Of a stretch of DNA of 64,000 nucleotides, positions 12,239 through 40,536 are shown piece after piece. Below the pieces are notes generated by a model that saw only the letters and a list, made by a program, of their open reading frames with translations, ran no database searches and was not told the DNA's origin. Source of the DNA: Alphaproteobacteria bacterium (GTDB lineage Bacteria > Pseudomonadota > Alphaproteobacteria > Bin95); NCBI GenBank assembly GCA_963422665.1, contig OY730441.1, forward strand, positions 2,466,489-2,530,488. The letters are read 5' to 3'. The number at the start of each line of letters is the position of its first letter. Within the stretch, counting starts at the first letter, position 1. Both the position numbers and the translations under genes were made by a program.

Positions 12239-12879
12239 GTCCGCACCGCCCTGGTCACGAAAATCTGCTCGATGCCGATACCGGACGCCCGCTCGTCGAA
12301 CGGCACCCGCATCACGAGCACCTTCGTCACCATCTTCGTCGAGGACGTCTTCCGCCCGGCATGGAACGTGATCAGCATCGGGAACTCGAGCTGCCAGCCC
12401 GCGCGCCCGTCCCCGAATATCTGCGCATCCGTGATCACCGGCGCGCCCTGCGCCACCGCGCTCGCGACCTGGTAGTTGTCCCTGATCCGGTCGAGATACA
12501 GGCTCTCCTCGAGCCCCGCCACGAAGGAGTCGAAGCCCTCGTCCGTGAAATAGACCCGCACCGCCGAGAGCCGCGGCCGCCAGTCGTGATGCCCGAAGGT
12601 GAACGCCTCCGTGACCGCCGTCACCGCCCAGTTCTTCAGCGAGGCGTCCGTGCGCACCGGCTCTTCCAGCCCCTGCGCCTCGATGATCTTGCCGTCCGGC
12701 GTCGCCGCGATCGTCACATAGACCGTGTCGTGAAGGTCGATATAGCTCCAGAGCGCCACTGTCAGCAGTACGTTCATACCGAGCAGCACGAACGCGATCC
12801 GCCGCCAGCCGTGATGCGCCGAACGCTCGAAAGACAGGCTCCGCGCCGCCGCTGCGACCGCCTGGCGGAGATCGCTCAC
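12235..12879 (-). CDS. DotI/IcmL (R64 TraM)-like bitopic inner-membrane protein
   Basis: 214 aa (IcmL is ~212 aa), single TM IAFVLLGMNVLLTVALWSYI then periplasmic domain; GTG start in GTGA overlap; directly precedes DotH/DotG-like genes as in icmL-icmK-icmE. Confidence 0.5.
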   Translation of the reverse strand: MSDLRQAVAAAARSLSFERSAHHGWRRIAFVLLGMNVLLTVALWSYIDLHDTVYVTIAATPDGKIIEAQGLEEPVRTDASLKNWAVTAVTEAFTFGHHDWRPRLSAVRVYFTDEGFDSFVAGLEESLYLDRIRDNYQVASAVAQGAPVITDAQIFGDGRAGWQLEFPMLITFHAGRKTSSTKMVTKVLVMRVPFDERASGIGIEQIFVTRAVRT

Positions 12880-13244
12880 CGGACCCGCCAGGGCGCCGGA
12901 TCCATCGGGACCCGCGCCTCCGGAAACTCCGGGCCGAATACCCAGCCTGCGGTAAGGACGCAGAAACACATCGCGCAGACCGCGAACCCGACCGCGTTGC
13001 CGCGCCGCCATGCCCGCAAGGCCCGGACAGCCCGGAACGCCAGCGCCACCGCAAACGCCGCATTCAGGACCCAGCCAAAGGCTTCCTCCCCCGGCGTCCG
13101 CCGCCGCAGCAGATCCTGCGCCTTGCTCCCATACCTGTCGGCCAGTCCCCGCGCCGCGCCCCCAAAGCACAGAACCGCAAACACGGGCGCCGCTACCGAG
13201 GCCCCGGGACTCGCATCCGCCGCCCGTTTCAGCCGAACCCGCAT
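12876..13244 (-). CDS. Small integral membrane protein (IcmM/DotJ-position)
   Basis: 122 aa, 3 hydrophobic helices; 3-nt gap to upstream gene. Confidence 0.35.
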   Translation of the reverse strand: MRVRLKRAADASPGASVAAPVFAVLCFGGAARGLADRYGSKAQDLLRRRTPGEEAFGWVLNAAFAVALAFRAVRALRAWRRGNAVGFAVCAMCFCVLTAGWVFGPEFPEARVPMDPAPWRVR

Positions 13245-13247
13245 CGC

Positions 13248-24404: not shown

Positions 24405-24802
24405 CGCAGATCGTCCTCCCACACGCCGAACGTCGCCGGCAGGAGGCGGCACCAGCGCTCCAGCTCCTCTTCGCCGCAGATCTCCGGGCGCAGCGTCCTC
24501 ACCGCCGAGCCGACTTCGGCCCGCTCCCGGTTCCATGCCTCGAGTTCCTTCTGGACGGCCAGGAGACGGCGCATCCCGGCAACCTCGCGCGCCAGCGCCT
24601 CGCGGACCTTCAGACCCTCGAGACGCGTCGCCGCCCAGCCGCCCGGAGCCGGCGGCGCACCCTGCTTCGTGGCGCTGTCCTGTGCGGGAGCCTCGTTCTC
24701 TGCCGGGACCGCGTCCTGCGTCTGGGCCGCACCAGGCAACGGCATCGCCCCCGCCAGAACGAGCAGGACCGCGAGACCCGAAATCCGCGCCGCCATCAGC
24801 AT
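24401..24802 (-). CDS. Small secreted periplasmic protein
   Basis: signal peptide MAARISGLAVLLVLAGAMPLPGAAQ; 130 aa. Confidence 0.35.
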   Translation of the reverse strand: MLMAARISGLAVLLVLAGAMPLPGAAQTQDAVPAENEAPAQDSATKQGAPPAPGGWAATRLEGLKVREALAREVAGMRRLLAVQKELEAWNRERAEVGSAVRTLRPEICGEEELERWCRLLPATFGVWEDDLR

Positions 24803-25872
24803 CCCGAGCAGCTCCCGACCGTGAGCGACCCGAACGAGCCCGTGCCGGTGACCGTGACAGACCCGTTCACATTGGCGCCCGCGGCCGTGAGGTTGGCGCC
24901 GGCCTCGATGTTCGCGGCCTCGACGTCGCCTGCGATATCGGCGCTCGCCGCCTCCAGTGCGCCCGTCGCTTCCACCGCGTCCGCATTGACAATGCCCGTG
25001 AACGCCGCGTCGCCCCGGAACACCAGGCCGTCCGGCACCGTGAAACTCCCCATGACCTCGACCGAGCCCGCCGTCGTCGCCGTGCCCACGGTGAGCGCCC
25101 GGTCGATCCGGAACTCGCCGGCCCGCATCACCCGGTGCACCTGAAGCTCCTCGGCCGTCAGCACCCGCACGCCCACCAGGTCGTTGCCGTTCATGTCGAG
25201 GTCGGTCTCCATGCGCGCGGAGTCCGGACAGCCGGCCCTGACCCGCCGGAACACGGCGTCACCGCACACGCTCTCCCGGTCGAGCTGCCGGTAGACGGCC
25301 AGCGCCCGCGCGCGCGGATGGCCGCCGGCAGCCGCCCGGAACGCCGTCAGGTCCTCCTGCACGGTCGGCCCCAGCAACACGCCCGACCCGTCCACCACGC
25401 CCAGCGCCTGCCGGCCGCGCGCCTCGAACACCGCATTCGCCGGAAAGCGCGTGTCATTGGCGTCGGCCAGCTGCATCGACAAGAGCCGCACATCGCCCCC
25501 GCCGAGCGAGACCGCCCAGGCCTGGAGCGGGCGCTTCATCGCGTCGCCCGCCTCGTCGAAGCCCTGCGGCAACAGCCTGTCGGTCCTGAGGGCGCCGATA
25601 TCGATCCGCCGCGCCGTCCCGGCCGCCAGGCCTGCATAGGTTCCGTATGCCGAGCGCACATGGCTCTCGACCGCCTGAGCCAGCACCACGAGCTTCCGCG
25701 CCGCGCCAACCGCGTTCGAGGCCGCGATGCGGCCCTGCAGCCAGATCGCGAAGCCGAGCGCGATCACCACCAGCACGATCACCGCCACCAGCGCGCCCAC
25801 CGGCGTCATGCCCCGCCAGCGCCCGATCCATAGGCGCCGCGCGAACCCCGGTCTGCGCATGGGTCCCCTCAT
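24796..25872 (-). CDS. PilV-like minor pilin/adhesin paralogue 1 (prepilin-type leader)
   Basis: basic 21-aa leader ending RG then hydrophobic MTPVGALVAVIVLVVIALGFAIW; shared ARMETD motif and Cys-containing C-terminus LTVGSCSGC; ATGA overlap with paralogue 2. Confidence 0.45.
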   Translation of the reverse strand: MRGPMRRPGFARRLWIGRWRGMTPVGALVAVIVLVVIALGFAIWLQGRIAASNAVGAARKLVVLAQAVESHVRSAYGTYAGLAAGTARRIDIGALRTDRLLPQGFDEAGDAMKRPLQAWAVSLGGGDVRLLSMQLADANDTRFPANAVFEARGRQALGVVDGSGVLLGPTVQEDLTAFRAAAGGHPRARALAVYRQLDRESVCGDAVFRRVRAGCPDSARMETDLDMNGNDLVGVRVLTAEELQVHRVMRAGEFRIDRALTVGTATTAGSVEVMGSFTVPDGLVFRGDAAFTGIVNADAVEATGALEAASADIAGDVEAANIEAGANLTAAGANVNGSVTVTGTGSFGSLTVGSCSGC

Positions 25873-27113
25873 CGCACCACCGGCTCGCAGCCGGTGCAGT
25901 CGCCCGTCGTGACGACGCCCGTGAACGATCCCGTATTCGCGCCGAGACCGCCGTCGATCCGAAGCCTCCGCGCCCGGGCATTGCCCGAGGCCTCGAGCCC
26001 GCCGCCGCCGTCCAGGCGCCCGGCCACCTCCAGACTGCCCGCGCCCACTTCGCCCGCCACCGCGAGCGCCGTGTCCGTGGCGGTGAGCCCGGTGCCGACC
26101 GACAGCAGCTGCGGGATGTTGAACGCCTGCGCCGGCGCGCCCGTATGGCCGAACCGGAACCCGCCATCGGCCCGAAACCTCGTCGCCGGAATGTCGCCCC
26201 CGAACGCCATGCTGCCGGGCTGGCCGGTCCGGCCCACCGTCACATTGCCCGCGATCTCCGCCGGTGCCCCGCCCGTCCCCGCAAAGCGCCCCTCCCGGTT
26301 GGTGCCGACATCGACCCCTTCGACATTGCCGGCGTTCCGAACCTCGTAACAGCGCCGGTCGTTCGCCAGCGCCGCATTGCGGCAGTCCTCGCCGACGACG
26401 ACCGCGACCGGGCTCTCGATCTCGCCCGCCGGCAGCAGCGCCTGGCCGACGGCGCCCGCATTCGGGCCGAACACGAAATCCGTCTCCATGCGCGCAAGCT
26501 CCGGACGCCCGCCCACGGCGCGCCGGTGGAGCCGGTCCCCGTCATGCTCCACCGCATGGTCCGCCGTCGCGAACAGCGAGCCCGCCGGCAAGGCCCCGAG
26601 CACCGCGCGCACCGCCGGCAGCCGGCCGTGCATCGCCGTCGCATCGCCGCCAACCGCGCCCACAAGGTCGAGGCCGCCCATCACTGCGCCCGCGCGCAAT
26701 GCCGGCGCCCGGAACGAAAGCTCCGGGCCCGAAAGCGAGCACGCCGCCATCGGAACCCCGTCAACCATGACAGCGCCATAGGCAGCCGTCGCCACCGTGC
26801 CCCCGGCGCGACCGACCGTGCCGAGGCCGGCCGGGAGGAGGGACCAGCCCCTTAGCTGCGCCGGCGTCACGACACCCGCCGCCGTCACCCGGCCCGACTG
26901 GACCGCCCGGTGGACCGCCGTGCAGGTCATCGCCCAGATGCGCCCACGCTCGCGGTCGATCTCCGCCAGACGCAGCGCCTCCTGCTGGCGCTCCCAGGCC
27001 GCCAGCACGAACACCACCGTCGCGGCCAGGAACAGCGCGCCCACAGGCAGCGCCGCGCCGCGGCCCGCGCCCCGGCGCAGCCGACCGACCAGCGATGATC
27101 GCAGGCGCGCCAC
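25869..27113 (-). CDS. PilV-like minor pilin/adhesin paralogue 2
   Basis: leader ...RLRRGAGRG then ALPVGALFLAATVVFVLAAW; ARMETD motif; C-terminus TTGDCTGCEPVVR. Confidence 0.45.
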   Translation of the reverse strand: MARLRSSLVGRLRRGAGRGAALPVGALFLAATVVFVLAAWERQQEALRLAEIDRERGRIWAMTCTAVHRAVQSGRVTAAGVVTPAQLRGWSLLPAGLGTVGRAGGTVATAAYGAVMVDGVPMAACSLSGPELSFRAPALRAGAVMGGLDLVGAVGGDATAMHGRLPAVRAVLGALPAGSLFATADHAVEHDGDRLHRRAVGGRPELARMETDFVFGPNAGAVGQALLPAGEIESPVAVVVGEDCRNAALANDRRCYEVRNAGNVEGVDVGTNREGRFAGTGGAPAEIAGNVTVGRTGQPGSMAFGGDIPATRFRADGGFRFGHTGAPAQAFNIPQLLSVGTGLTATDTALAVAGEVGAGSLEVAGRLDGGGGLEASGNARARRLRIDGGLGANTGSFTGVVTTGDCTGCEPVVR

Positions 27114-27116
27114 CGG

Positions 27117-27656
27117 TCACCCGAACACGAACGTCAGCGCGTTGCCCGCCGTGCCTTTATTGCAATTGGTGTTGAGCCAACCGATGGTGCGCACCGTGGG
27201 CGCGGTGGTCGGCACGGTCGTTGGCGCCGTCGCGGCCACATTCATGATCACGATGCCCGAGCCCGCCCGCGTCCGGCCCGCATAGGCTTGGCCCAGGTCC
27301 TTGCACGTCTCGTTGTCCAGATCGTCAAACGTGATCGCGAAACGACCGCTGTTCCCACGGATCGTCACCGCACCGCCGAAGGCATGCTGGATCGTCTCCG
27401 AGCCGGCAGAGCCAACCTTCGCGCCGTCCGGGATCTTCCCGAACCCGCGAACGATCGGCACGAGGTCCGCGTTCGCGCTAGGGCCATAGCTGGCCTGGCC
27501 CGAATAGATCCGCTCGACGCTCGCGCGCAGCTGGTTCAGCAGCTTGATCGACTCGCCCTCCTTCAGGCTCGCCGTGATCCCGTTGTAGATCCCGACGACC
27601 GCGACGATCGCCACAAGGCCCGCGATTACCGACAGCAAGACTCCGACCGGGTTCAT
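27117..27656 (-). CDS. Major pilin candidate (type IVB/PilS-like), no obvious leader
   Basis: 179 aa; N-terminus MNPVGVLLSVIAGLVAIVAVVGIYNGITAS shares the xPVGxL start with the two PilV-like proteins; Thr/Pro-rich C-terminal region; directly downstream of the platform gene. Confidence 0.5.
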   Translation of the reverse strand: MNPVGVLLSVIAGLVAIVAVVGIYNGITASLKEGESIKLLNQLRASVERIYSGQASYGPSANADLVPIVRGFGKIPDGAKVGSAGSETIQHAFGGAVTIRGNSGRFAITFDDLDNETCKDLGQAYAGRTRAGSGIVIMNVAATAPTTVPTTAPTVRTIGWLNTNCNKGTAGNALTFVFG

Positions 27657-27668: not shown

Positions 27669-28727
27669 TCAGTAGCTTCGTTCCACCTGGGTCGAGATGT
27701 CGAAACTCACCCACATGATCAGGATCATCTGCGCCGTCCCGACACCCATCAGCACCGTGTTCAGCACGGCGGCCCGCATCCGCATCAACGCCTCCGAGCG
27801 CTCCACCCAGCGATCCACGAACCCGGCAAGCGTCTCTTCCCAGTCCGCGCGCCCGTCCATCGCGCCCGCAACCGCCACCAGCGTCTCGTCCGGGAACCCC
27901 TGGCGCGCCGCCGAGAGCGCCGAGCCGAAGCCCAGCCCCTCGTTCAGCATCAGCTCCCGCACACGGCGCATGCGGCTCCGCACATAGGGCGACGCGCCGC
28001 GCTCGAACTGGACGAACGTGTCCCGGTTCAGGTCCACGCCCATGCGCAGGAACTCCACGCACACGAACAGGAACCCGCTCCCCGACAGCGTCCGGTAAAG
28101 CGAAAAGGGCGGGATCCGGTCCGCAAACACCCGCCCCCGTCCCGTCCAGCGCAGCACAACCAGCCGGAAGGCCGCCAGGAACAGCACGAACGCGATCCCG
28201 ATCTCGACGTCGTTCCCGTAGAAACCCTCCGAGACCCAGGCGAGCGAGCGCGACCAGATATCCCAGCGCGACCGGTCGCTCACCTCCAGCATCGCCGGAA
28301 TGACCTCGTAGCCCATGAACCACGTCATCCCCACGCAGCCAACGAAGATCACCAAAGGCATGAACATCGCGTTCGCCACCGCGCGCACCTGCTTCGAGCG
28401 CATCTCCGCCACCCGCGCCGCCGCCAGGAACAGCACCTCCGCACGCGCCCGGCCCAGCCCGTAGAAGACCATCGCCTCCGACGCCGGAACCCAGCGCGAG
28501 AGTTCCACCGCGAAATCGTCGCCGCCCGACGCCAGCGCCGCCTGCCAGTCCCGCAGCATCCGCACCCGGATCGTCTCGCGCGACTTCGCCTGCATCACCA
28601 CGCCGAGCGCGTCCCGCAGCCCGAGGCCGCCCTGGAGCAGGTCGTGCAGCAGATACCAGATGTCGATCCGCGCCTCGGTCCGGGCCGCCAGGAGCCGGCG
28701 CAGGAACAACCACCGGAAACCCCTCAT
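27669..28727 (-). CDS. Pilus platform protein, GspF/PilC/PilR(R64) family
   Basis: 352 aa from MRGFRWLFLRR (ATGA overlap with ATPase gene); two T2SS-F-like repeats, each with a cytoplasmic helical domain and TM helices. Confidence 0.6.
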   Translation of the reverse strand: MRGFRWLFLRRLLAARTEARIDIWYLLHDLLQGGLGLRDALGVVMQAKSRETIRVRMLRDWQAALASGGDDFAVELSRWVPASEAMVFYGLGRARAEVLFLAAARVAEMRSKQVRAVANAMFMPLVIFVGCVGMTWFMGYEVIPAMLEVSDRSRWDIWSRSLAWVSEGFYGNDVEIGIAFVLFLAAFRLVVLRWTGRGRVFADRIPPFSLYRTLSGSGFLFVCVEFLRMGVDLNRDTFVQFERGASPYVRSRMRRVRELMLNEGLGFGSALSAARQGFPDETLVAVAGAMDGRADWEETLAGFVDRWVERSEALMRMRAAVLNTVLMGVGTAQMILIMWVSFDISTQVERSY

Positions 28728-30409
28728 TCCACCGCCTCCGCGCCCGCGACCAGCATCGGCTTGCCCGGAAGGGCGGCGCCCGGAACCCGCAGGTCCCCGC
28801 CCCGGCGTTCCTTGGCAGCCCCGAACACCGCCTTCGCCCCGGCGATCTCCGCGCCCTTCAGCATCGCGTCCGCCGGATCGACCCGGCCCTCGCCGACCGC
28901 GCGCCAGATCTTCCGCCCGATCGGAACCCCGCCCATCGCGCCTACCCAGTGGTTCCACGCGCCGACCGCATCCCGCCCCTGCACATGCCTCAGATAGCCG
29001 TCGTCCGGGACGATCCACTCCGCAACCGCAAGCGGGCGCACATAGCCCGCCCACGCCGCCAGCGAGAGCGCCGACTGGCCCGCCTTGCGGCAACTGGCGC
29101 AGCCCTCCGGATTGCGGTAGCGGACCCCCGGGCCCAGAAGCGACACCAACTCCTCCGGGAGGTCCCGGCCCTCCGGCAGCGCCGGCTGCGCGCATTCCGG
29201 ACAGAGCAGCGGCACAAGCGTCTGCTTCATCAGCAGGCGCACATTGCCGGGCTTCGTCACCTCCGACACCTCGACGCCGAGGTCCATCAGACGGAACAGG
29301 ATGCCGTTCGCCGTGTGCACGTGGATCGTCGTCCACACCTGGTGGCCGCTATCGATGAACTGCAGCACCTGCTGCGCGCCCATCTTGTCCCGGATCTCGC
29401 CCACCATCCCCGAGGCCGGATGCACCCGCACGAAATGCATCAGCGCCGCCGCAAACCCCAGACCCCGCTCCTCGCCAACGCCCCGGGTCGGAACCGCAAT
29501 CTGCACCGCCCCCGGTATGTCGTATTCGACCGGGTCCTCCAGCGTGATCATGTTGAGCCGACGCCCGTGCTCGCGCATCTGCAGGTTCAGATTCACCGCA
29601 AGCGTCGTCGACTTGCCGTCACCCGTCGTGCCGCCGATGAAGATGCCGCCGTATTTCGACATTCGGATCTCCCGGAACAGGCCCGCCACCTCCGCCGTGA
29701 ACCCAAGGTCCTCCAGAGACTTCCGGCCCCCGACCTGATCGCGGTAGAAGAGGCGCATGTAGAGGTGGTGGCCCTCCGGCTCGTGCGGACCCGCCTCGCA
29801 GCGCAACGCCGCGATCTCCTCCGGCAAGGGAAAGGTCTCCGAACGCCTCACGCTGAAACCCTGGAAGCTCGCACGCTGCAGCGAGGTCTGCCGCGAGCCC
29901 TCGTCCTTCACGAAGAACAGGAACCCGAACACCTGCTCGGCCTCCCGCACCGTCATCGCCGAACCCAGGGGCAGCTTCCGGTCGTTCACGATCGCGAACA
30001 CCCGGCAGTCGTCCGGACCCTTCTCCAGCACCACGTCCGAAGCCCGGGCCCTCGCCGCCTCCGTGAAGATCGCGACAAGCCCCTCCACGATCCGGGGGTT
30101 CACATCCAGGCTCTCGTCACGGACCCGGTTGCCGCGCCAGACCTCCGCAACCTCCTGGAGCGAGGCCGTCTCCTCCCGGAACTGGCCCCGAACCGCGCCC
30201 GTGCGCTGGAGCTCCACCAGCAGCGCGCGCAGCTCGACATCGTTCGCATAGCCGTCCGCGATCAGCACACGCCCGTCCGACCAGACCGCGCAGCGCTCCC
30301 GAAAGCGATCGTCCATCCGCTCCCAGCGCACCAGGCCCGACGGCATCACCTCCGGCGGCTTCTCCCTGAACAGCAGACGGCCCCACCATGTGTCCCGCCG
30401 GCTCGTCAT
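28724..30409 (-). CDS. Pilus assembly ATPase, GspE/PilB/PilQ(R64) family
   Basis: Walker A GGTTGDGKSTTLAVN; Walker B LEDPVEYD..; His-box region; tetracysteine-like CPECA...CASC; 561 aa. Confidence 0.8.
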   Translation of the reverse strand: MTSRRDTWWGRLLFREKPPEVMPSGLVRWERMDDRFRERCAVWSDGRVLIADGYANDVELRALLVELQRTGAVRGQFREETASLQEVAEVWRGNRVRDESLDVNPRIVEGLVAIFTEAARARASDVVLEKGPDDCRVFAIVNDRKLPLGSAMTVREAEQVFGFLFFVKDEGSRQTSLQRASFQGFSVRRSETFPLPEEIAALRCEAGPHEPEGHHLYMRLFYRDQVGGRKSLEDLGFTAEVAGLFREIRMSKYGGIFIGGTTGDGKSTTLAVNLNLQMREHGRRLNMITLEDPVEYDIPGAVQIAVPTRGVGEERGLGFAAALMHFVRVHPASGMVGEIRDKMGAQQVLQFIDSGHQVWTTIHVHTANGILFRLMDLGVEVSEVTKPGNVRLLMKQTLVPLLCPECAQPALPEGRDLPEELVSLLGPGVRYRNPEGCASCRKAGQSALSLAAWAGYVRPLAVAEWIVPDDGYLRHVQGRDAVGAWNHWVGAMGGVPIGRKIWRAVGEGRVDPADAMLKGAEIAGAKAVFGAAKERRGGDLRVPGAALPGKPMLVAGAEAVE

Positions 30410-31978: not shown

Positions 31979-33301
31979 TCAGTCGATCTTGTCCGGCGTG
32001 TGCTGCGTCCACACCGCCGGTCTCATCCCGAGCTGATGCGCGAGCGTACGCCAGTGGACGCGTCTAGAACCCGCCGGGTCGTTCCTGACGGTCATCTCCA
32101 GAGTGCCCCGCGTCCAGCGCCAGACGCCGGCGAAATGCGGGCCCTCGACCAGGTTTCCGGCCTCGTCCACCACCGAGAACTTGCCCTTCGGATGGAACAC
32201 GAAACGCTTGTCCGCATAAGCCTCGCCCATGAAGGCCAACTCGCGCGGATACGGGCGCGCCAGAAACTCGTCCGTCAGCTGGAACGCCGCATGGCGATGG
32301 CCGGTGGGCCTGAACGGAAACGGGTAACCGACCATGTAAACCACTTCCCGACCGCCGATTCGGGCCGTGATCTTGTCTCCGCCCTGCGAACGTACCGGAA
32401 GAACGAACTCCTCTTCGGCGCCGTCCTCTCCGGCCGCCCAGAACTCTCCGATACCTTCCGTCCTGGCATAAACGAAACCGTTCCCTGCAGGCGATTTCAG
32501 GATGTTGCCCTCCTGGGCGGCTAGGTAGGCCTCAACCTCTTCCGCTGTGGTTGTCGGCGCCCCTCGCGACGCGCCAAGACCGGTCGTGCCGGGCGCCCTC
32601 AGATGCGAGCCCGGGAAATTCCGGATCGGTGCATCCGGGTCCTGACGGCGCAACTCCTCCATCTGGAGCGAGGTCTGCTTTTCGTTGATGGCCATGCCGA
32701 CAGGCAGGTCTAACCCGGGACAGGCGTCCGCCAAGGCGCGAGGCCAGGTATCTTGGACATGCCCTCTTTCTGAGCGAATCCAATAATCCTTGCCGCCTTT
32801 TCGGTGTCGGACGACTTCGCCCGCTAGGAAGCCTGTCGAGGGATCGTAGAAAAGCGGAAGATGCCGTGGCCTCCGGCCGTCGTTATACGAATTTCTGACA
32901 ACGGCTCCGATCAGCTTGGCCTGCTGGAGCACTTCCCACTTTACGTCCCTCTGGGCCAACCAAAGCGGGTCGCCATTTCTCTTCTTGTAGGCAAGGCAGC
33001 CGATACGTGATCCGTCTTTTGAGAAAATAAATCCTCGCACGATATTGCGGTAATTCGGATGATGGACGCCTTCGAATATCCACGCGCGACCGGACAACAG
33101 ACTGTCATAGAAGGCCTTGTCGTAGGGAATGAAATTCGGATGGGTGTCAATTGCGATATCCCTGACTGTCCCATGCGCCATGCAGGACGACAGCACGGCT
33201 CCCGCCAGAAGCAGCGCCAGCGCTCTTCCTGTCCCTTGTTTCAGCGTCGTCATTCTGTGATCTCCATTCGGTGTCTCTCGATCACAATGATTATCCGGCA
33301 T
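31979..33301 (-). CDS. Lipoprotein of unknown function, markedly lower GC than surroundings
   Basis: lipobox ALALLLAGAVLSSC; ~440 aa rich in K/N/F/Y; AT-rich stretches e.g. ~32990-33060. Confidence 0.5.
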   Translation of the reverse strand: MPDNHCDRETPNGDHRMTTLKQGTGRALALLLAGAVLSSCMAHGTVRDIAIDTHPNFIPYDKAFYDSLLSGRAWIFEGVHHPNYRNIVRGFIFSKDGSRIGCLAYKKRNGDPLWLAQRDVKWEVLQQAKLIGAVVRNSYNDGRRPRHLPLFYDPSTGFLAGEVVRHRKGGKDYWIRSERGHVQDTWPRALADACPGLDLPVGMAINEKQTSLQMEELRRQDPDAPIRNFPGSHLRAPGTTGLGASRGAPTTTAEEVEAYLAAQEGNILKSPAGNGFVYARTEGIGEFWAAGEDGAEEEFVLPVRSQGGDKITARIGGREVVYMVGYPFPFRPTGHRHAAFQLTDEFLARPYPRELAFMGEAYADKRFVFHPKGKFSVVDEAGNLVEGPHFAGVWRWTRGTLEMTVRNDPAGSRRVHWRTLAHQLGMRPAVWTQHTPDKID

Positions 33302-34229
33302 GCCGACCGGCCATGCCGGGCTTGCGCGCGAAAAAGCGTTGGACCCCGAACGCCCCTGCAAACCAGGCCCGAGTCAGCCGGCCGAACCGTTCCATCCACA
33401 CCAGCCTGTCCGCCGACAGCGTTCCGCTCCGCGCGGCCTCCGTCATCCGGCTCTCCTGGGCAGCCAGGATCCGGGCGTTCGGCAGACAGCGCGCCGACAG
33501 GTCCATGATCCCCAAGGCCTCAAGGCCCGCTGCCCGCAGCTTGTCGACATAGCCGGCCGGGCTCTCCAGATCGACCATCGACCAAGACTCGCAGATCGGT
33601 TGGATATACTCGCGGTATTCCTCCGGCGTGAGCGCCTGAGCCGGCATCCAGTCACTCCCCGCCAGACGCCCCCCGGGCCGGAGAATGCGCGCGCATTCCT
33701 TCAGGAGCCGCGCGCGGTCGGCCATGTGGCAGGCCCCGTCGATACTGACCACAACATCGACCGAACTGTCGGGCAGGCGGATTTCCTCCGAACAGTCCGA
33801 GAAGCGGAACTCGACCAGATGCTCCAACCCGTCGCTCTTCGCCAGTTCGCCGGCGGCTTCCAGCTGTTTCTCGCTGATATTCAGCCCGATGACCCTGCAG
33901 CCGAGCGTTCCGGCCAGGTGAAGCGCCGTTCCGCCGACCCCGCAGGCCGCATCGGCCACCACGTCTCCGGTGCCGATCCGCGCAGGACCGACCACTTCGC
34001 CGATCATCCTGACCACCGCCCTGTCGAGCAGGTCCCTGTCAAGCCGTCCCGCATCCGGGCCGTCCAGAACAAACGGCTCCTCACCGGGATCGAAGAGCCC
34101 GAAATGGAGATGGCGCGGATGCCAGCCGGACAGGTAATAGTCGCCGCCGTCGTAATGAGCGGCGACAGCCCTGGCCTGCCGTGACAGCGGAGCCTGATAG
34201 CTGTCCGGAGCTAACGCCTGTGCCTCCAT
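33291..34229 (-). CDS. Class I SAM-dependent methyltransferase of the cyclopropane-fatty-acid-synthase/mycolate-MT family
   Basis: AHYDGGDYYLSGW (HYDxxNxFY-type) motif; motif I VADAACGVGGTALHLA; 312 aa; 10 nt from the polyprenyl synthase gene. Confidence 0.7.
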   Translation of the reverse strand: MEAQALAPDSYQAPLSRQARAVAAHYDGGDYYLSGWHPRHLHFGLFDPGEEPFVLDGPDAGRLDRDLLDRAVVRMIGEVVGPARIGTGDVVADAACGVGGTALHLAGTLGCRVIGLNISEKQLEAAGELAKSDGLEHLVEFRFSDCSEEIRLPDSSVDVVVSIDGACHMADRARLLKECARILRPGGRLAGSDWMPAQALTPEEYREYIQPICESWSMVDLESPAGYVDKLRAAGLEALGIMDLSARCLPNARILAAQESRMTEAARSGTLSADRLVWMERFGRLTRAWFAGAFGVQRFFARKPGMAGRHAG

Positions 34230-34239
34230 CCTCTTGCTC

Positions 34240-35256
34240 CTAGTGACGGCGCTCGACGCAGAACGCCGCGAAGTCGTGCAGCGCCTCGCGCACCGGGCCG
34301 TCCGGAAAGAGAGCGAGAGCCTGCGCAGTGTCTTCCGCCCGGGCGCGGGCCTCGGCCAGCGTGTCCGCCAGCGCATCCCGCCGGTCCAGCAGCGCCAGCG
34401 CCCGCTCGAAGTCGCCGGGCCGCCGGTCGCCATCCTCGAAGGTTCGGCGCCAGAAGGCCCGTTCCTGCGCATCGCCGCGTTCGAATGCCAGAATGACCGG
34501 CAGCGTCGCCTTGCCCTCGGCAAAGTCGCCCCCGACCGCCTTCCCCAGTTCCGCCTGCCGGCCCGACCAGTCCAGGACGTCGTCGGCGAGCTGGAACGCG
34601 ATCCCCAGGTTCCGACCATAGGCCCCGAGAGCCGTTTCCGCTTCGCGCCCGGCGCCGGCGGCGACGGCCCCCAGCCGGCAGGCGGCGGCAAACAGGGCGG
34701 CAGTCTTGTCCTCGATGGCCTCCAGACAGGCCTCCACCCCCGCTCCGGGGCGGCCGGCATCCTGCATCTGGCGCAACTCGCCCTCGGCCATCGCCGACGT
34801 TGCCTCGACGAACAGCTCGAGCACCCCCGTCGGTCCGGCCTCTATCATCAACTGGAACGCGCGCCCGATAAGCCAGTCCCCGACCAGCACGCTTGCGCGG
34901 TTCCCCCAAAGCGCGTTGGCGCTGGCGACCCCGCGCCGCAAGGAACTCGCGTCCACGACATCGTCATGCAGCAGCGTGGCCATGTGGAAGACCTCGACGC
35001 TCGCCGCGAGCGTGACGGGCCGGCCCCCGGCCGCCCCGCAGAGGCGCGCGCATGTCAGGGTCAGGATCGGACGCAGGCGCTTGCCGCCCGCACGCGCGAT
35101 GTGGCCGCCCAGGCGCGGTATGAGCGTCGCCCCGGCTTCCATCCGCTCGGCGATCAGCGCCTCGACCCGATCCAGGTCAGTGCCCGCAAGAGACCGCAGC
35201 CCGGCAAGCGCGGACTGTGGCGCCAAAGGCGGCAGGGGAAACGCGGCGTCAGCCAT
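34240..35256 (-). CDS. ispB: trans-Polyprenyl diphosphate synthase (IspB/IspA family)
   Basis: FARM LLHDDVVD and SARM QLADDVLD aspartate-rich motifs; 338 aa from MADAAFPLPPL; 4 nt after the upstream secreted-protein gene. Confidence 0.8.
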   Translation of the reverse strand: MADAAFPLPPLAPQSALAGLRSLAGTDLDRVEALIAERMEAGATLIPRLGGHIARAGGKRLRPILTLTCARLCGAAGGRPVTLAASVEVFHMATLLHDDVVDASSLRRGVASANALWGNRASVLVGDWLIGRAFQLMIEAGPTGVLELFVEATSAMAEGELRQMQDAGRPGAGVEACLEAIEDKTAALFAAACRLGAVAAGAGREAETALGAYGRNLGIAFQLADDVLDWSGRQAELGKAVGGDFAEGKATLPVILAFERGDAQERAFWRRTFEDGDRRPGDFERALALLDRRDALADTLAEARARAEDTAQALALFPDGPVREALHDFAAFCVERRH

Positions 35257-35260
35257 CCCG

Positions 35261-36784
35261 CTACTCCCCGGCCTTTTCAACCAGCCAGCGGTCGTGAAGC
35301 CGATGGACCGCCCCGGCCATGATTTCGAAGGCCAGATCGTTCTCGCCCCTGCGGAACGCCGAGGCCGATGCGTCGATCTTCGCTTCCAGCCAGGCCCAAT
35401 CGGGGTGATCTTTCGGGATTGCCGCCACAATGGCGGGGGCTACCCGATAGTAGCCATCAACCATCGTACGCCGCTCGGGTGTAGCCTGCATGTAGGTGTC
35501 CCGGAACCGGCGCATCGCCGTCAGCGTCGGACCTTGGTTCGCTTCACCGCGCATCTCGACCACGGCGGTTGTCAAGAAGCAGGACCCACCATCACCGCCA
35601 CTATTCCCGACATCCATATCCTCTGGTTTACCCGTGGCATCGACGGTATCCATCGTTTCCTCGGCGGTACTGGTCGTCTCCTCTCCACCGCCACCGCCAT
35701 CACCATCACCATCACCGTCGCCGTCGCCGTCGCCGCTGGGGATGGGCGCGCAGTCCTCCTCCCTGCGCACCAGCAGCTTGGCACCGTTCACCCGGGCGAC
35801 CCGTCGGGTCGTGACGACCGGAGCCCTTGGGCGCACCCGGAAGTCGCGATATTCCGTGTTCTGCTCGTAATGCAGCGTGCAGCTTCCCGTCTCACCGGAA
35901 GGGCAGCTGCAGGAGCCCGTGGTCCGATGGACAGGGGCCGTCCTCCAGGCGATCACCGGGTCCGGGATCGGCGCGGGCGGCAGCGCCTGCGCATACTGGA
36001 AGGGACAGAGCCCCTCGGCATGACGCCATGGGCTGCACTCAGCCCGCGAGCCCAGCCCCGCCCGGAGGCTACAGTCGCGCGGCCAGAGATGCGCCGCACC
36101 CGGTGCCGTCGCCGAAAGATCCCGGCCTTGCGTTTCGCCCGCACCCAGAACGCCCGTCACCTGGATCGGAACCTGGCGCGCCTCGCGGAAGGTATCCGCC
36201 GGCGAGCCCGGACAGGCGACGTCCCGCGTCTCCGTCTCCCAGCGTATGCCCGTCACCGTACGGATCGGATCGGCGACCGCGCCCACCAGGCCCACACGGT
36301 CATCGCCCGTCGAGGGAACGCCTATGCAGGTGGGCAGCGCCGTGTCGTCGCGTCCATGCGCCCCCCGCGCGATGCGCGTGTTCGCCAGGATCACATGCAG
36401 GCCCGTCCGGCCGCCGCCATAGCGCACGGGCGCGACCTGGACCTCCCTGTGGCCCCGGCCCAGGCCCTTCAGCTCGTCCTGTGCCGCATAGACAGCCAGC
36501 ACCCCCTGGCAGTAGCGCGCCGTCAGGCCCCGCTCCGTCCAGGACGAAAGCCACCAGGACCCGGAAGGGGGCGCGGCGAGCCCGATCCATTCATCTTCCC
36601 AGAGATTCGCGGTGTCCGTCACCCGGATGCGAGCCTCCACGCTCTGCCAGGCGCTCTGGATCGCAACCGCATACGCCAGCGCCTCCTGCTGGCGCGTCCG
36701 GTCCGGATCGCCCGTCTGGGCCGCCGCGCCCGACGCGATCCCCACAAATGCCAGCGCCAGAAGCGCCGACCCCGTCCGTTTCAT
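35261..36784 (-). CDS. Secreted Cys-rich protein containing a (Gly-Asp)n tract
   Basis: signal peptide MKRTGSALLALAFVGIASGAAAQ; GDGDGDGDGDGDGGGGGEE encoded by a hexanucleotide repeat; ATGA overlap with upstream gene. Confidence 0.5.
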   Translation of the reverse strand: MKRTGSALLALAFVGIASGAAAQTGDPDRTRQQEALAYAVAIQSAWQSVEARIRVTDTANLWEDEWIGLAAPPSGSWWLSSWTERGLTARYCQGVLAVYAAQDELKGLGRGHREVQVAPVRYGGGRTGLHVILANTRIARGAHGRDDTALPTCIGVPSTGDDRVGLVGAVADPIRTVTGIRWETETRDVACPGSPADTFREARQVPIQVTGVLGAGETQGRDLSATAPGAAHLWPRDCSLRAGLGSRAECSPWRHAEGLCPFQYAQALPPAPIPDPVIAWRTAPVHRTTGSCSCPSGETGSCTLHYEQNTEYRDFRVRPRAPVVTTRRVARVNGAKLLVRREEDCAPIPSGDGDGDGDGDGDGGGGGEETTSTAEETMDTVDATGKPEDMDVGNSGGDGGSCFLTTAVVEMRGEANQGPTLTAMRRFRDTYMQATPERRTMVDGYYRVAPAIVAAIPKDHPDWAWLEAKIDASASAFRRGENDLAFEIMAGAVHRLHDRWLVEKAGE

Positions 36785-38085
36785 CCCGAACTCCCCGTTG
36801 TGCGATCCGCCGCCGCGTCTGCCGCGCCCGCCTGCGTCAGCGCGTCGAACTCGCTCTCCAGCATGGTGAACGGCCGTGTCCGCCTGACCCCGAACCGCCA
36901 GCCACCCTCTTCGCTCCAGGAGACCGAGGCGACCTCGACGCCCTCCATGGCGGACAGCATCGCCACCGCTTCCCTGAGCGGCCTGCCGGTGCCAAGCACC
37001 GCTTCCGCGTCCGCGCCGAACTCCGTGTATTCGATATCGAAGCCGCGAAGCGCCAGCGTCCGGTCCAGAAGGTCACGGAACTGCGTCGGCTCCAGCCAGC
37101 GGCCGGCCTTCGGGTCGTGCCGCTCGAGCACCGAAGGCAGAGGGCTCAACGCGATCGACGCACCCTTGTCGTCGATATCCGCCACCGGCCATCCGGCCAG
37201 CATGTCCTTCGCCATCGGGCCGTAGACGCGCGGATCGAGGCCCTCCCTGAGCGCCCAGCGGACCTCCAGCACGGGCCGACCCATCAGGCCGCCATACGAA
37301 ATCCCCGTCTCGCTCCCGGCAAACCTCGGATGGCAGACCACGGCCCGCCGGTCGAACCCCGCCATGCGCACCCTGAGGCCGTCCCAACCCGCCTGACACG
37401 ACCGCAGGAACGCCGGCGTCACCACGACCGCCTCGACCGTCGGCGGCTCCTCCGGTTCCGGCTTCCCGTACCCGGCCCACTCCCGAAGGTCTTCATAGTG
37501 GAACAAGCCCGCATATGCCGCGCCCCCGGCAACCAGCAACAGCACCGCCGCCCAGGCCCCGACCCGCGACAGGCTCCCCTTCGGGGCCTCGGCCAGGACC
37601 GGCAGGTCCTTCGCAGCCGCCGCGATACTCGATGCTTCCACGGTCGTCGCCTCCTCGAACAGCCCCGCCAGACCCGGCGTGGCGAGGATGCGGACACCTT
37701 GGGTGGCGCCCGTCCCGAGCGCCCTCTGCGCCTCCGCAGCCGCCTGAAACACGCCGTCGCCCCCGGGAAGGATCCCGCCGCCCGAACTGCGCACGACCCC
37801 GACCCGCTTCGGCCCATCGTCCTCGCCGTCCTCCTCGATGAACGCCGTCCAGGGCGACCTGCCCTCCGGGCGCTTGCGCATGAACTCCACCAGCGCGCCC
37901 GCAAGGGGCGGGAGACCGCCCGGATTCTCGATACCGCCCAGGAACCCCGTCTGCCCGCCGAGCTCGACCGTCCAGCGATGGCCCCGGTCGCGCGCCGCCT
38001 TCGCCGCCTTGCCCCCGCGCAGGACTTCCCGCTCCCAGTCGAGACTGGCCGCGAAACGGTGACCGCCGACCACAAGCACGCTCAT
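36781..38085 (-). CDS. Bitopic pilus biogenesis protein, PilO(R64)/BfpC-like
   Basis: ~434 aa from MSVLVVGGHRFAASLDWE; cytoplasmic N-domain, single TM VGAWAAVLLLVAGGAAYAGLF, periplasmic C-domain; between secretin and the rest of the pil genes. Confidence 0.4.
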   Translation of the reverse strand: MSVLVVGGHRFAASLDWEREVLRGGKAAKAARDRGHRWTVELGGQTGFLGGIENPGGLPPLAGALVEFMRKRPEGRSPWTAFIEEDGEDDGPKRVGVVRSSGGGILPGGDGVFQAAAEAQRALGTGATQGVRILATPGLAGLFEEATTVEASSIAAAAKDLPVLAEAPKGSLSRVGAWAAVLLLVAGGAAYAGLFHYEDLREWAGYGKPEPEEPPTVEAVVVTPAFLRSCQAGWDGLRVRMAGFDRRAVVCHPRFAGSETGISYGGLMGRPVLEVRWALREGLDPRVYGPMAKDMLAGWPVADIDDKGASIALSPLPSVLERHDPKAGRWLEPTQFRDLLDRTLALRGFDIEYTEFGADAEAVLGTGRPLREAVAMLSAMEGVEVASVSWSEEGGWRFGVRRTRPFTMLESEFDALTQAGAADAAADRTTGSSG

Positions 38086-39899
38086 CCGCCAGCCTCCCGG
38101 GCCGCGCCGGCTGCCGCCGGAGAGACCGCATCCCGGAGGGCCGGGTGCGCCGGGGCCGCATTGCCGCTCTCGACCTTCGCGACAGGCCCGCCGGCCGGGA
38201 ACCCGGCGCCGAGCCTCCGCTCCGATATGCCGAGCGGCGTCCCGATATCGGCCGTCACCAGCAGCGCCGTCTCGACCCGCGCGATATCCGTGTCCGCGCC
38301 GCCCTCCGGCAGCGGCACCGCCGGATGGAACGTGCCCGACCGCTCGCCCGACGACGACCGGTCGCGGAAGCCCGTGAGGAGAAGCGTCTCGCCCCTCGCG
38401 ATACGCTGCGTCACCACGATCGCGCGCCGACCGCCCGACGGAAGCTGGATCCGGTTGCCCGCAGCCCCGAAGGCCGCGAACTCCGGACGGTCCTGAATGG
38501 TGGCCGTAATACGAGCCAGGACCTCGTCCGGCGCCACGATCCGTGCGACGAAACTCAGCCCGAAGCCGGACGACACCGTTCCCGGCGTCAGCTCCACCGC
38601 CCACACGCCGTCCTCGATCGTGGTGCTGACCTTCTGCAGATACGCCTGGTCGAACAGGTCGTAGAACTGCGCCGGGCGCCCGTTCAGGGTCGGCACATCC
38701 ACCGACAGCACCCGCGAGGCCGTGCCGACCTTGCGGAGCGCATTCACTGTCGCGCGCAGGCTCGAGGCCCCGACCGATGTCGGCTTCACCACGGAAATCG
38801 TGCCGCCGTCGAAGCCGACCACGAAGTTGGACCCGAACGCCTCCGGCAGGATGCCCGTCAGCCCCACTTCGTAGTCCGAGCCCTTGTCGAAGCGCACCGA
38901 GTAGAGATGCACCGAGAGCGTCACCGGGCGCAGCACATGCCGGTTCACATGCTCCAGATAGGCCCGCACCCGCTCGACCGCACGCGGCAGGCCGGTCGCC
39001 GTCACCGTCGCGGACGCCGCCGAAACCGAGACCGTCCCTTCCGGGCCCGCCGCCGCAACCGCCTGCGGGCCGATCTCCTGCCAGGGGTCGTAGGTCATCT
39101 CCGAGGAGATCGACTGCGACGAGGATCCGGCCGTCGCTTCGCCGCCCGCGCCGACCGTCGTCGTGGTCACATTGTATTTCTGGCTGCCGAGCAGGGCATG
39201 GACGGCGAAGATGCGCGTCTCGGAGCGCACGACCTCGACGGTCGCGGTCCCGTCATCGTATTGCCACCGGTAGCCCCCAGCCTGCGTCCAAGCGTCCAGC
39301 AATCGGTCGAGCGGACCCGACCACACGCCGGCCTCGCCCGCCAGCTCGTCGGACCAGGACGAGAGCCAGCCCGAGACGAAGCCGCTTCTGTTGAACGCGG
39401 CTCGAACGCGTGCGTCACCCGACGCTTCCCCCGCCTGCGCCCCGCTCTGGACTTCGATGCCCGCCTCGACGCCGGCCAGGCTCTCGCCCGTGCCCAGCCA
39501 TTCGGCCCCGACCAGCCGGACTTCGATCCCGGCTGCATCCGATATCCGCCGCGCCAGCACCTCGTCGCCCGGCTCGTCGCCCAGCGTGACCACGATCCCG
39601 GTCTCCGAGCGCAGGTCCTCGGGCAGGAGAGAGCGATCCTCCGCCACCGGCCGCAGCGCCAGATAGGGGTCCCTGGATTGCGTGAGAGAGCGGAAGCCGG
39701 GCCTGTCCGGCTCCAGCGAGCCGACCGAACCCAGACGGGCCTCTACGGACGCTGCGTCCCGCGCGACCTCAGCCTGGTCGAACCAGCCGCAGCCGCCAAG
39801 CAGGACAGCACCCAGCGACAGCGAAAGCAGCATGCTTCCGACACGCGCCGATGACGGCCTGTTGACAACATGCGGCGAATCCAACAGCTTCCCTCCCAT
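38082..39899 (-). CDS. Lipoprotein secretin (PilN of R64/BfpB-like)
   Basis: lipobox LSLGAVLLGGC; C-terminal secretin domain ...VPTLNGRPAQFYDLFDQAY...ETALLVTADIGTPLG; first gene of the minus-strand cluster. Confidence 0.65.
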   Translation of the reverse strand: MGGKLLDSPHVVNRPSSARVGSMLLSLSLGAVLLGGCGWFDQAEVARDAASVEARLGSVGSLEPDRPGFRSLTQSRDPYLALRPVAEDRSLLPEDLRSETGIVVTLGDEPGDEVLARRISDAAGIEVRLVGAEWLGTGESLAGVEAGIEVQSGAQAGEASGDARVRAAFNRSGFVSGWLSSWSDELAGEAGVWSGPLDRLLDAWTQAGGYRWQYDDGTATVEVVRSETRIFAVHALLGSQKYNVTTTTVGAGGEATAGSSSQSISSEMTYDPWQEIGPQAVAAAGPEGTVSVSAASATVTATGLPRAVERVRAYLEHVNRHVLRPVTLSVHLYSVRFDKGSDYEVGLTGILPEAFGSNFVVGFDGGTISVVKPTSVGASSLRATVNALRKVGTASRVLSVDVPTLNGRPAQFYDLFDQAYLQKVSTTIEDGVWAVELTPGTVSSGFGLSFVARIVAPDEVLARITATIQDRPEFAAFGAAGNRIQLPSGGRRAIVVTQRIARGETLLLTGFRDRSSSGERSGTFHPAVPLPEGGADTDIARVETALLVTADIGTPLGISERRLGAGFPAGGPVAKVESGNAAPAHPALRDAVSPAAAGAAREAGG

Positions 39900-39939
39900 G
39901 CGTTCCTGCTGGGAAAACTGTGGTGGTAGGAAAACGCTG

Positions 39940-40536
39940 GGCGACCCGCCCGACTACGAACCGCCGGCGGAGCGCAGCATCGCCGGGCTGGCCGGCGGCG
40001 GCGATCCGCGCGCGGCGCTCCTCGACGCCATGCTGGCCGACGGGGGCCGGGCGCTGATCTACTTCCCGCTGCTCGGCTATGCCGACGGCGATTTCGAGAT
40101 GCTGCGCACGGTGCTGGAGCATCCGTTGTCCATGCTCAGCCTCTCGGACGGCGGCGCCCATTGCGGGCTTATCTGCGACGCCAGTTCGCCCACCTACATG
40201 CTGAGCTACTGGGCGCGCGACCGGCAGCGGGGGCCGCAACTGGCGCTCGAACACGCCGTCAGGCTCCAGACGAGGGGCACGGCGGAGGCCTACGGGCTGA
40301 ACGACCGCGGCCTCCTGCGCGCGGGCTTCAAGGCCGACCTCAACCTGATCGACTTCGACGCGCTCCACCTGCATGCGCCCGTCATGGTGCGCGACCTGCC
40401 GGCCGGCGGACGGCGCCTGGTGCAGCGCGCCGACGGCTATGTCGCCACCTTCGTCTCGGGCGAGGCGGCCTGGGAGCGGGGCGAGGCGACGGGCGCCATG
40501 CCGGGCCGCCTGCTGCGCGGCCCACAGGCGGCGTGA
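39940..40536 (+). pseudogene. 3-prime remnant (~200 aa) of an N-acyl-D-amino-acid deacylase (D-aminoacylase) gene truncated by the island
   Basis: C-terminal amidohydrolase-3 region ...GFKADLNLIDFDALHLHAPVMVRD...; N-terminal ~280 aa absent, frame runs straight into the secretin gene. Confidence 0.55.

Follow-up and report, generated by a model that had tools for sequence, protein, structure and literature searches.

Several described pathways place a methyltransferase of one broad superfamily beside an isoprenoid enzyme: GPPMT and the 2-methylisoborneol (2-MIB) synthase, SodC and SodD, and Lon23 and Lon22. The last pair belongs to longestin biosynthesis, where Lon23, an isopentenyl diphosphate (IPP) methyltransferase, is coupled with the elongating synthase Lon22 (PMC10881772). 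The locus described here contains a gene pair of the same kind. It lies in a stretch of 64,000 nucleotides of alphaproteobacterial DNA (contig OY730441.1; "the window" below always means the whole of this stretch), in which a gene for an IspB-type prenyl diphosphate synthase (hereafter IspB') and a gene for a methyltransferase dependent on S-adenosylmethionine (SAM; hereafter MT) stand side by side within a conjugative pilus operon. Unlike the described pairs, this one has no terpene cyclase with it and is linked with a protein domain and with a conjugation apparatus.

The immediate neighbours of the pair, which we call X and Y, are not canonical pil genes, and all four genes lie between pilO and pilP. 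A first-pass annotation of the window had recognized a tight, co-oriented pair inside a pilus operon, and had suspected that the synthase was not simply the housekeeping ispB. Both observations hold: the pair is encoded on the minus strand, like the cluster, with an R64-type type IVB pil set around it, and its synthase belongs to a separate clade found in a variable slot of a mobile element. No paper joining a polyprenyl synthetase, a conjugative pilus and a methyltransferase was found in the literature, nor any description of the arrangement, and neither X nor Y has a curated family. The enzymes themselves are members of known superfamilies. What is new is the logic of the cassette, in which an exchangeable C-terminal domain of a secreted protein linked to a conjugation apparatus is combined with cognate enzymes, here an IspB paralogue and a methyltransferase.

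One cassette swapped between pilus backbones

Details of the features are collected in Table 1. X encodes a secreted protein that begins with a Sec signal peptide, continues through a Cys-rich region and an acidic Gly-rich linker, and ends in a C-terminal domain that matches NF041770 (CFI_box_CTERM) over residues 402–458 with 41.2 bits, above the cut-off of 40. Comparison of loci (numbered with the prefix L; individual proteins with the prefix P) shows that this CFI-box domain, IspB' and MT make up one mobile cassette, swapped between pilus backbones.

The first line of evidence is gene order. X-IspB-MT-Y is kept at every locus where a close MT homologue is available with its context: L002, L004, L005 (the same place as L010) and L100. 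Across the first three of these, identity to the window is 41–76% for X, 70–92% for IspB, 59–87% for MT and 42–69% for Y. At L100 the same four genes adjoin a coupling protein and a primase, and neither L100 nor L005 has pil genes near the four-gene module.

The second is the locus L090, whose pil products closely match those of the window (PilQ and PilS 99%, PilO 84% and PilN 80.5% identity). The first 350 residues of its X share 78% identity with X of the window, after which the protein runs into an unrelated Ca-binding domain of the DxDGDG type; a GNAT acetyltransferase and a radical SAM enzyme follow, and after them a Y homologue (55% identity). A metagenome scan with Y returned eight short contigs, which were used for cassette typing. 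Five of them (L092, L093, L094, L096 and L098) carry the arrangement of L090, which we call type B (Ca-binding domain, GNAT and radical SAM); L093 starts at the GNAT gene, and its X lies off the contig. In the other three (L095, L097 and L099; type C) X stops in the linker and Y comes directly next, with no enzymes between. Domain and enzymes thus go together in each type: the CFI-box domain occurs with IspB and MT in all five loci for which there is sequence (type A), the Ca-binding domain occurs with GNAT and radical SAM in all loci with both ends on the contig (L090, L092, L094, L096 and L098), and the lack of a C-terminal domain goes with the lack of enzymes in three of three.

The third is the mosaic seen at the level of DNA. 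Between the window and L090 the flanks are 83–91% identical and there is zero homology from 35738 to 32757. With L002 the picture is the reverse: the cassette (35996–33171) is 86.5% identical and pilQ to pilV only about 67%. With L005 the cassette (35600–33348) aligns, and beyond it only short pieces of Y. It follows from this mosaic that the CFI-box domain, IspB' and MT have been inherited and exchanged as one unit, and that the break lies inside X, at the linker. A search of the PLSDB plasmids by tblastn, with MT and with Y, found nothing.

Two side observations concern L090 (6731–11260). The DxDGDG-repeat domain of its X carries the precomputed Pfam assignment PF26745 ('SPM'). The radical SAM enzyme has 302 residues, and its best NCBIfam matches, TrsS (117 bits) and the tetraether lipid synthase Tes (72 bits), are both far under their cut-offs.

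The junctions within the window are tight, and each of the three starts has a Shine-Dalgarno-like sequence before it. The TAG stop of X is followed after 4 nt by the ATG of IspB', which has GGAG upstream; the TAG of IspB' is followed after 10 nt by the ATG of MT, with AGGAG 7 nt upstream; and the TAA of MT is followed after 37 nt by the ATG of Y at 33253, with GGAGA upstream. The longest open reading frame (ORF) for Y starts at a TTG (33361) and overlaps MT; neither the homologues nor the public annotation use this start. In that annotation, made independently on an identical 5.2-kb contig, the products likewise have 338 residues (synthase) and 312 residues (MT). The IspB'-MT pair is operonic. 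The 10 nt between its members had been read correctly from the start; the 4 nt reported on both flanks apply to the X side only, the gap to Y being the 37 nt just given. The pair had also been credited with the G+C content of the cluster, which stands for IspB' (72.4%, within the 65–75% of the pil genes) and falters for MT (66.8%), the C-terminal domain of X (63.7%) and Y (60.9%). Promoter- and terminator-like matches were no commoner than in shuffled controls, with no excess of terminators.

Y, on the far side of the cassette, is a lipoprotein without a Pfam or NCBIfam match. Its AlphaFold model (54 homologues) is confident (pLDDT 87.7), and on that model the N-terminal domain appears to be lipocalin-like. 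The idea that this N-terminal barrel co-varies with cassette type was rejected: it is hypervariable within type A too. The Y homologue P0290 is annotated as a fusion with a radical SAM domain. Two other Y paralogues (P0248, which is identical to the Y of L090, and P0306), apparently encoded in the same genome as the window, suggest that this genome also carries X-Y loci without IspB.

The two enzymes of the cassette

The first-pass annotation had named the larger enzyme an IspB-type prenyl synthase with both Asp-rich motifs, and this identification is borne out. IspB' matches PF00348 (polyprenyl_synt) with E 1.9e-65 and 221 bits, against a gathering score of 27, and the closest solved structures, aligned end to end, are the octaprenyl/decaprenyl diphosphate synthases 4jxn (E 1.7e-84) and 3mzv (E 1.3e-82). 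With the IspB/DdsA enzymes of Alphaproteobacteria as a group (4jxn, 3mzv, 3oyr) the alignment is full-length at E 1e-75 to 1e-84, and the shared features include the first Asp-rich motif (FARM; DDVVD, residues 98–102), the second (SARM; DDVLD, residues 225–229) and the RRG motif. Also shared are the small residues at positions -5 and -4 before FARM (A93 and T94, in ...HMATLLHDD...), which are the same in 4jxn, 3mzv and E. coli IspB and place the enzyme among the long-chain type.

Within this family the cassette enzymes stand apart. A neighbour-joining tree of 120 homologues sets the 14 IspBs that accompany the cassette apart as a split of their own (bootstrap 97–100 of 100), with 63–92% identity to the window synthase; the next-nearest sequences are ordinary alphaproteobacterial IspBs from metagenome-assembled genomes (MAGs) of Stellaceae and Rhodospirillales, with 57–61%. 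At sites conserved to at least 90% in 106 ordinary IspBs the cassette clade has 20 substitutions. Three are just upstream of FARM (F89V, I90F and T92M), and further changes include I148L, L149F, I156M, V161L, L164M, T166D, Y177C, R202A and A232G. L149F aligns, in a gap-free alignment with an offset of 14, with M135 of E. coli IspB, a residue that reportedly makes the tunnel floor together with M123. Several of the clade-specific substitutions may line the product tunnel, and it is reasonable to regard IspB' as an active synthase with an altered tunnel, producing another chain length or tolerating branched units.

Unlike IspB/DdsA, then, IspB' belongs to a clade that tracks the cassette and not the host, has bulkier residues before FARM and at 148–164, and lies in a mobile, variable slot beside a methyltransferase. 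The phylogeny and the altered sites identify it as a distinct, diverged paralogue of the housekeeping IspB. Orthology with the housekeeping gene appears improbable: IspB' does not fall with the host-lineage clade, and the 20 altered sites are near-invariant elsewhere. It also scores 256 bits against the cut-off of 412 of NF008140 (NCBIfam), a weak argument because that model is E. coli-centred. At L003 (1979–2932, on a contig of 2x coverage) the cassette IspB is broken into a 172-residue ORF and fragments in other frames, with MT and Y intact; the breakage reflects either a pseudogene or sequencing errors.

These results bear on the simplest account of the pair, namely that an ordinary ispB and a UbiE/UbiG-like methyltransferase were captured as metabolic cargo and supply a quinone side chain. 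The identity of 57–61% to ordinary alphaproteobacterial IspB and the intact catalytic motifs are what would be expected of such cargo. We nevertheless consider it most improbable. The genes occupy the variable slot of an integrated conjugative element, not a place of conserved chromosomal synteny; sister loci hold other genes there or are empty, and the same genome appears, from its Y paralogues, to keep X-Y loci that do without IspB. The synthase belongs to a clade of its own with changes at invariant positions, and MT reaches only 41 bits with UbiE/MenG (TIGR01934, cut-off 158) and 33 bits with UbiG (TIGR01983, cut-off 103), so that neither identity was retained.

The second enzyme is, as the first-pass annotation had it, a SAM-dependent methyltransferase (Methyltransf_11, E 3.3e-21; CMAS, E 5.5e-09), with the N-terminal motif HYDGGDYYLSGWHPRHLHFGLF. 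Its placement with the C-methyltransferases of geranyl, farnesyl and isopentenyl diphosphate (GPP, FPP and IPP) is not supported. When a profile of the MT family was run against solved structures, the best scores went to MitM (151 bits), RebM (147 bits), a D-glucose O-methyltransferase (6uv6, 139 bits) and TleD (5GM1, 128 bits); phosphoethanolamine N-methyltransferases scored about 100 bits and the sarcosine/dimethylglycine methyltransferase 2o57 scored 91. The prenyl-diphosphate methyltransferases came lower still: BezA and the C6-FPP methyltransferase at 66 bits, GPPMT at 50–56 and VbFPPMT at 44. In this the window pair departs from the prenyl-diphosphate pairs with which we began, since MT does not group with GPPMT, BezA or FPPMT (44–66 against 128–151 bits). 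The GPPMT model of NCBIfam (NF041943) gives it 45 bits, against a cut-off of 400. Nor does it cluster with the sarcosine/dimethylglycine N-methyltransferases: these provide its best NCBIfam match (NF041675), yet the 104 bits scored lie so far below the cut-off of 550 that MT does not belong to them, and 2o57 lies far under MitM and RebM.

Among solved structures MT is thus nearest to MitM, RebM and TleD, and its own clade is an uncharacterised one. With the three it shares the Rossmann core and an N-terminal W..H.HFG.F region; in sequence they are only distant relations (phmmer E values of about 1e-17 to 1e-25 in pairwise comparison), and the nearest true relatives of MT (36–55% identity) are uncharacterised. 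TleD C-methylates a prenyl double bond or chain on an acceptor, not on a diphosphate. The chemistry of the nearest solved group thus extends to methylating an acceptor-bound prenyl chain, but equally to O- and N-methylation.

It is in this light that a free lipid has to be weighed: a methyl-branched polyprenyl diphosphate or homoterpenoid, similar to longestin, that would serve as a membrane or signalling lipid independently of X. An elongating synthase beside a methyltransferase of the broad GPPMT/SMT superfamily fits such a product, the substitutions in the tunnel region of IspB' could accommodate branched units, and longestin itself provides the precedent. MT, however, has much nearer relatives in MitM, RebM and TleD than in any of the prenyl-diphosphate methyltransferases, and a free lipid leaves unexplained both the constant travel of the CFI-box with the enzymes and the break of homology inside X. 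We regard this possibility as unlikely, but as one to be taken seriously.

The family of MT is sparse. At E<=1e-10 there are 109 homologues in 5.8 billion proteins, with only ~18 above 50% identity; a profile search of GTDB genomes with the MT alignment gave one close relative (L010) among the matches listed, the others having at most 45% identity. P0016 (55% identity to MT) adjoins HlyD, an ABC exporter with a C39 peptidase, a 2-oxoglutarate (2OG) oxygenase and a P450, and the clusters that contain ~20 other relatives (36–45% identity) also encode a SagD-type YcaO cyclodehydratase as well as C39 exporters. The genomic context of the nearest relatives thus points to peptide natural products, in clusters of the type that makes thiazole/oxazole-modified microcins (TOMMs) and other ribosomally synthesized and post-translationally modified peptides (RiPPs). 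The possibility that the methyltransferases of these TOMM clusters act on CFI-box peptides was dismissed: their loci hold no CFI-box motif.

One such cluster, conserved and RiPP-like, recurs in marine MAGs (L007 and L011–L032, e.g. L007 501–10870). Its hosts include Nitrospirales, Paracoccaceae, Thalassobaculaceae and Gammaproteobacteria, and several isolate names look sponge-derived. Its genes encode a SagD-type YcaO cyclodehydratase in fused form, an unannotated protein of ~378 residues in one to three paralogous copies, a member of the MT family (36–45% identity), HlyD and a pair of ABC exporters, of which one has a C39 peptidase.

Prenyl chemistry comes back at three loci of Myxococcota type (L008, L009 and L017), where an MT relative (43–44% identity) follows a divergent gene of PF00348 type. 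In L008 and L009 the order, with all genes on the contig, is the PF00348-type gene, a 94-residue ORF, MT, secreted proteins and a PAP2 phosphatase. By gene content these loci represent a second, independent pairing of the MT family with prenyl chemistry. In the same two loci (8727–14673) the PF00348-type protein has 321 residues and contains DDAAD, but its second DDxxD is replaced by NDTVSAIAE, which resembles the NSE/DTE motif typical of class I terpene synthases; the MT relative there has 44% identity, one of the two secreted proteins has PKD domains, and a 1429-residue cyclase/AAA/TPR regulator lies upstream.

The CFI-box domain and a possible lipid partner

The CFI-box is not confined to pilus loci. 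A full HMMER scan based on X returned 1560 proteins at E<=0.001 and 159 at E<=1e-10, and most of the best 150 matches cover only the last ~100–150 residues of X. The domain is the extreme C-terminus of diverse carriers – phage-like proteins, proteins with a Sec signal, small stand-alone proteins and a RiPP precursor with an NHLP leader – and Gly-rich sequence usually precedes it. Four residues of the CFLTTA start (C, T, T and A) do not vary among 32 diverse members; the Cys, residue 402 of X, usually has a Gly before it. A confident AlphaFold (AF2) model shows a five-helix bundle (pLDDT 89), and a structural-neighbour search with this model yielded nothing informative. No paper on 'CFI-box' or 'CFIATAA' was found in the literature.

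Among the carriers, PHROGs assignments make P0397 and P0371 tape-measure-like, P0369 a virion structural protein and P0425 LysM/transglycosylase-like. P0372 (L101, 10001–19301) is a 235-residue NHLP-leader precursor with a full CFI-box in its core; it opens a tandem array of six NHLP precursors, and the genes after the array encode YcaO, a nitroreductase-type dehydrogenase and a DUF4135 (LanM-like) protein.

We propose that the product of the two enzymes is a dedicated polyprenyl lipid, probably methylated, which acts together with the CFI-box domain of X, a reading to which we give a probability of about 0.4. The cassette is a horizontally exchangeable accessory unit set into the X-Y pair between pilO and pilP. 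IspB' would make its own polyprenyl diphosphate in the cytoplasmic membrane, of a chain length probably unlike that of the host quinone side chain, and MT would methylate the prenyl chain or its adduct. The product would serve the CFI-box of X in the envelope, either as a bound ligand or anchor or as a covalent lipid on the invariant Cys402, and the lipocalin-like lipoprotein Y may handle it; a swap of the cassette would then alter a surface or envelope property of the transfer apparatus. Since the stand-alone modules have no other lipid-handling gene, X and Y are the candidate users of the product.

Several observations weigh against this proposal. The domain does not generally need the enzymes, given that it is found in more than 1000 diverse proteins and there are only ~18 methyltransferases above 50% identity. 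X has a Sec signal and both enzymes are cytoplasmic, so the lipid would have to reach the periplasmic face; neither a flippase nor a phosphatase or a transferase is encoded in the module. Variation in the N-terminal barrel of Y does not follow cassette type, and with the closest MT relatives in RiPP-type clusters a peptide substrate is equally possible.

A more specific version makes the CFI-box a C-terminal signal for lipidation or processing: Cys402 would be polyprenylated, or cleavage would occur there and a polyprenol ester be formed. The synthase would supply the lipid, and MT would cap the lipid or the new terminus; radical SAM and GNAT, together with the Ca-binding domain, would form another kit for decorating the same conjugation-associated surface protein. 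It would be a bacterial counterpart of CaaX prenylation and methylation or of Hedgehog-type lipid attachment. In this precise form we hold it to be distinctly unlikely.

The layout of X also brings to mind a toxin. The CFI-box would be a polymorphic effector, and IspB' either a resistant copy of its target or, together with MT, a means of altering the target lipid. A variable C-terminal domain that co-varies with the genes directly downstream is the classic layout of polymorphic toxins, the CFI-box does sit at the extreme C-terminus of varied carriers, usually after a Gly-rich linker, and a duplicated essential enzyme changed at conserved sites is what self-resistance would look like. Even so, the odds of this appear poor to us: the domain is a small helical bundle in which neither a toxin fold nor a catalytic motif can be recognised, its counterpart in type B is a Ca-binding repeat and not toxin-like, two enzymes would be unusual as immunity, and PADLOC gave no specific match, only a generic methyltransferase domain and a weak, generic radical SAM hit (pVip; the L090 enzyme).

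Pilus operon, conjugative element and comparison with known systems

The pil genes around the cassette (Table 1) carry the PilS, PilQ and PilN signatures of an R64-type type IVB thin pilus in pilN..pilV order, with PilN divergent. The PilO-position gene ends in a 4-nt overlap with the start of X. The C-terminal halves of the two PilV-like proteins (414 and 358 residues) share about 28% identity.

Table 1. Positions of the cassette genes, the pil genes and other features of the window.
Feature	Coordinates	Strand	Evidence or remarks
PilN-like secretin lipoprotein	38082..39899	-	TIGR02520 E 1.2e-41, 143 bits (cut-off 288); 80% identical to L090 PilN
PilO-position gene, 434 aa	36781..38085	-	84% identical to L090 433-aa gene in the same position; no Pfam match
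Gene X, secreted Cys-rich protein, 507 aa	35261..36784	-	Sec signal, NF041770, alignment of four orthologues
CFI-box C-terminal domain of X, from Cys402 (CFLTTAVVE...)	35264..35581	-	Motif location, cassette homology
IspB', IspB-type long-chain trans-prenyl diphosphate synthase, cassette-specific paralogue (from the tree), 338 aa	34240..35256	-	PF00348, PDB matches, tree
MT, class I SAM-dependent methyltransferase, 312 aa	33291..34229	-	Methyltransf_11/25/31 and CMAS (Pfam), PDB ranking
Gene Y, lipoprotein, 424 aa, lipobox LSSC	31979..33253	-	Hypervariable N-terminal lipocalin-like barrel (model), conserved C-terminal part
Small ORF, 76 aa	31670..31900	+	
Small ORF, 80 aa	31412..31654	+	
PilP-like, 182 aa	30406..30954	-	Weak TIGR03021 match; 78.6% identical to L090 178-aa gene
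PilQ-type assembly ATPase	28724..30409	-	PF00437 E 2.7e-42, 145 bits
PilR-like inner-membrane platform protein, 352 aa	27669..28727	-	Weak T2SSF match; position and length as L090 352-aa gene
PilS-type prepilin	27117..27656	-	PF08805 E 6.8e-08, 33 bits against 22
PilV-like minor pilin/adhesin genes, two in tandem	25869..27113, 24796..25872	-	Weak Shufflon_N; 86% and 91% identical to L090 genes
C-terminal third of amidohydrolase	39682..40536	+	Amidohydro_3 profile positions 359-469 of 472 only
DotH/IcmK-like ORF, as listed	11300..13063	-	
TrbI/DotG-like ORF, as listed	10128..12227	-	
Transposase-associated gene	59059..60285	-	DDE_Tnp_1_assoc

The setting invites a reading in which the pair makes a lipid carrier for a glycan or other modification of pilin or secretin, as the first-pass annotation had also entertained, with MT O-methylating the carried sugar before its transfer. 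The genes do lie inside a pilus operon, and the top solved relatives of MT include sugar O-methyltransferases (6uv6 and RebM, 3bus). But no glycosyltransferase, flippase or oligosaccharyltransferase family was matched by the module and pil products searched, and at L005 and L100 the module occurs without pil genes. Long-chain E-type products of IspB are, moreover, not the usual bacterial glycan carrier, which is the Z-type undecaprenyl phosphate made by UppS. We give such a carrier little chance.

The window is ~70% G+C, and the genes of its first 40 kb are mostly on the minus strand. At lower coordinates than the pil operon there are Dot/Icm-like (I-type) conjugation genes (DotH/IcmK, TraI/DotC, a TraJ/DotB-like ATPase and TrbI/DotG); beyond about 40 kb there are genes of ordinary metabolism, and the GC skew shifts there. 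An amidohydrolase fragment adjoins the start of pilN; it is probably a gene truncated by integration of the element, whose end it would mark. In relatives the same pilN end abuts different chromosomal genes. Since the source contig measures 4.59 Mb, the locus must be the end of a conjugative element (IncI/Dot-Icm-like) that has integrated. A tRNA scan of the window detected none, so no integration site of the tRNA type is visible.

As to the remaining features, the listed DotG-like and DotH-like ORFs overlap by about 900 bp in different frames, and at least one start must therefore be over-extended, as is common at such G+C. The transposase-associated gene lies among metabolic genes, and G+C falls to 0.63 at 60–62 kb. 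The tandem small ORFs between Y and pilP both end in ...LEARL/M..W.L.G..V....VKLIP, which is tail-anchor-like; their GC3 is 0.75, with weak CCDC90-like/DUF7158 matches, and at L090 a matching 80-residue ORF is called on the opposite strand. As they interrupt the operon, pilP to pilV probably have a promoter of their own.

Should the proposed lipid partnership be correct, conjugative elements would carry plug-in cassettes that pair a domain of a secreted protein associated with the transfer apparatus with enzymes for a cognate small molecule or modification. The widespread, uncharacterised CFI-box domain would gain its first testable partner, a polyprenyl lipid, and isoprenoid biochemistry would gain a neofunctionalised IspB paralogue and an uncharacterised methyltransferase clade near MitM, RebM and TleD. 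For annotation the lesson is that an extra ispB with a methyltransferase in such a slot should not be labelled quinone biosynthesis.

Compared with the R64/IncI1 thin pilus, the locus has the gene order pilN-pilO-...-pilP-pilQ-pilR-pilS-...-pilV in common. It differs in that its genes are very divergent (most models stay under cut-off), that pilO and pilP are separated by an insertion of X, Y and the enzyme cassette, and that two small opposite-strand ORFs interrupt the operon before pilP. In its architecture the cassette resembles the clusters of polymorphic toxins and RiPP precursors: a conserved N-terminal carrier, a linker, and a C-terminal domain that is swapped together with the cognate genes downstream. 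The likeness to RiPP precursors extends to the CFI-box itself, which is also found in a precursor of NHLP type; X, however, is exported by Sec, and not by means of a leader peptide. From the polymorphic toxins the cassette is set apart by the nature of its downstream genes, which encode metabolic enzymes and not small immunity proteins, and by the lack of a toxin signature.

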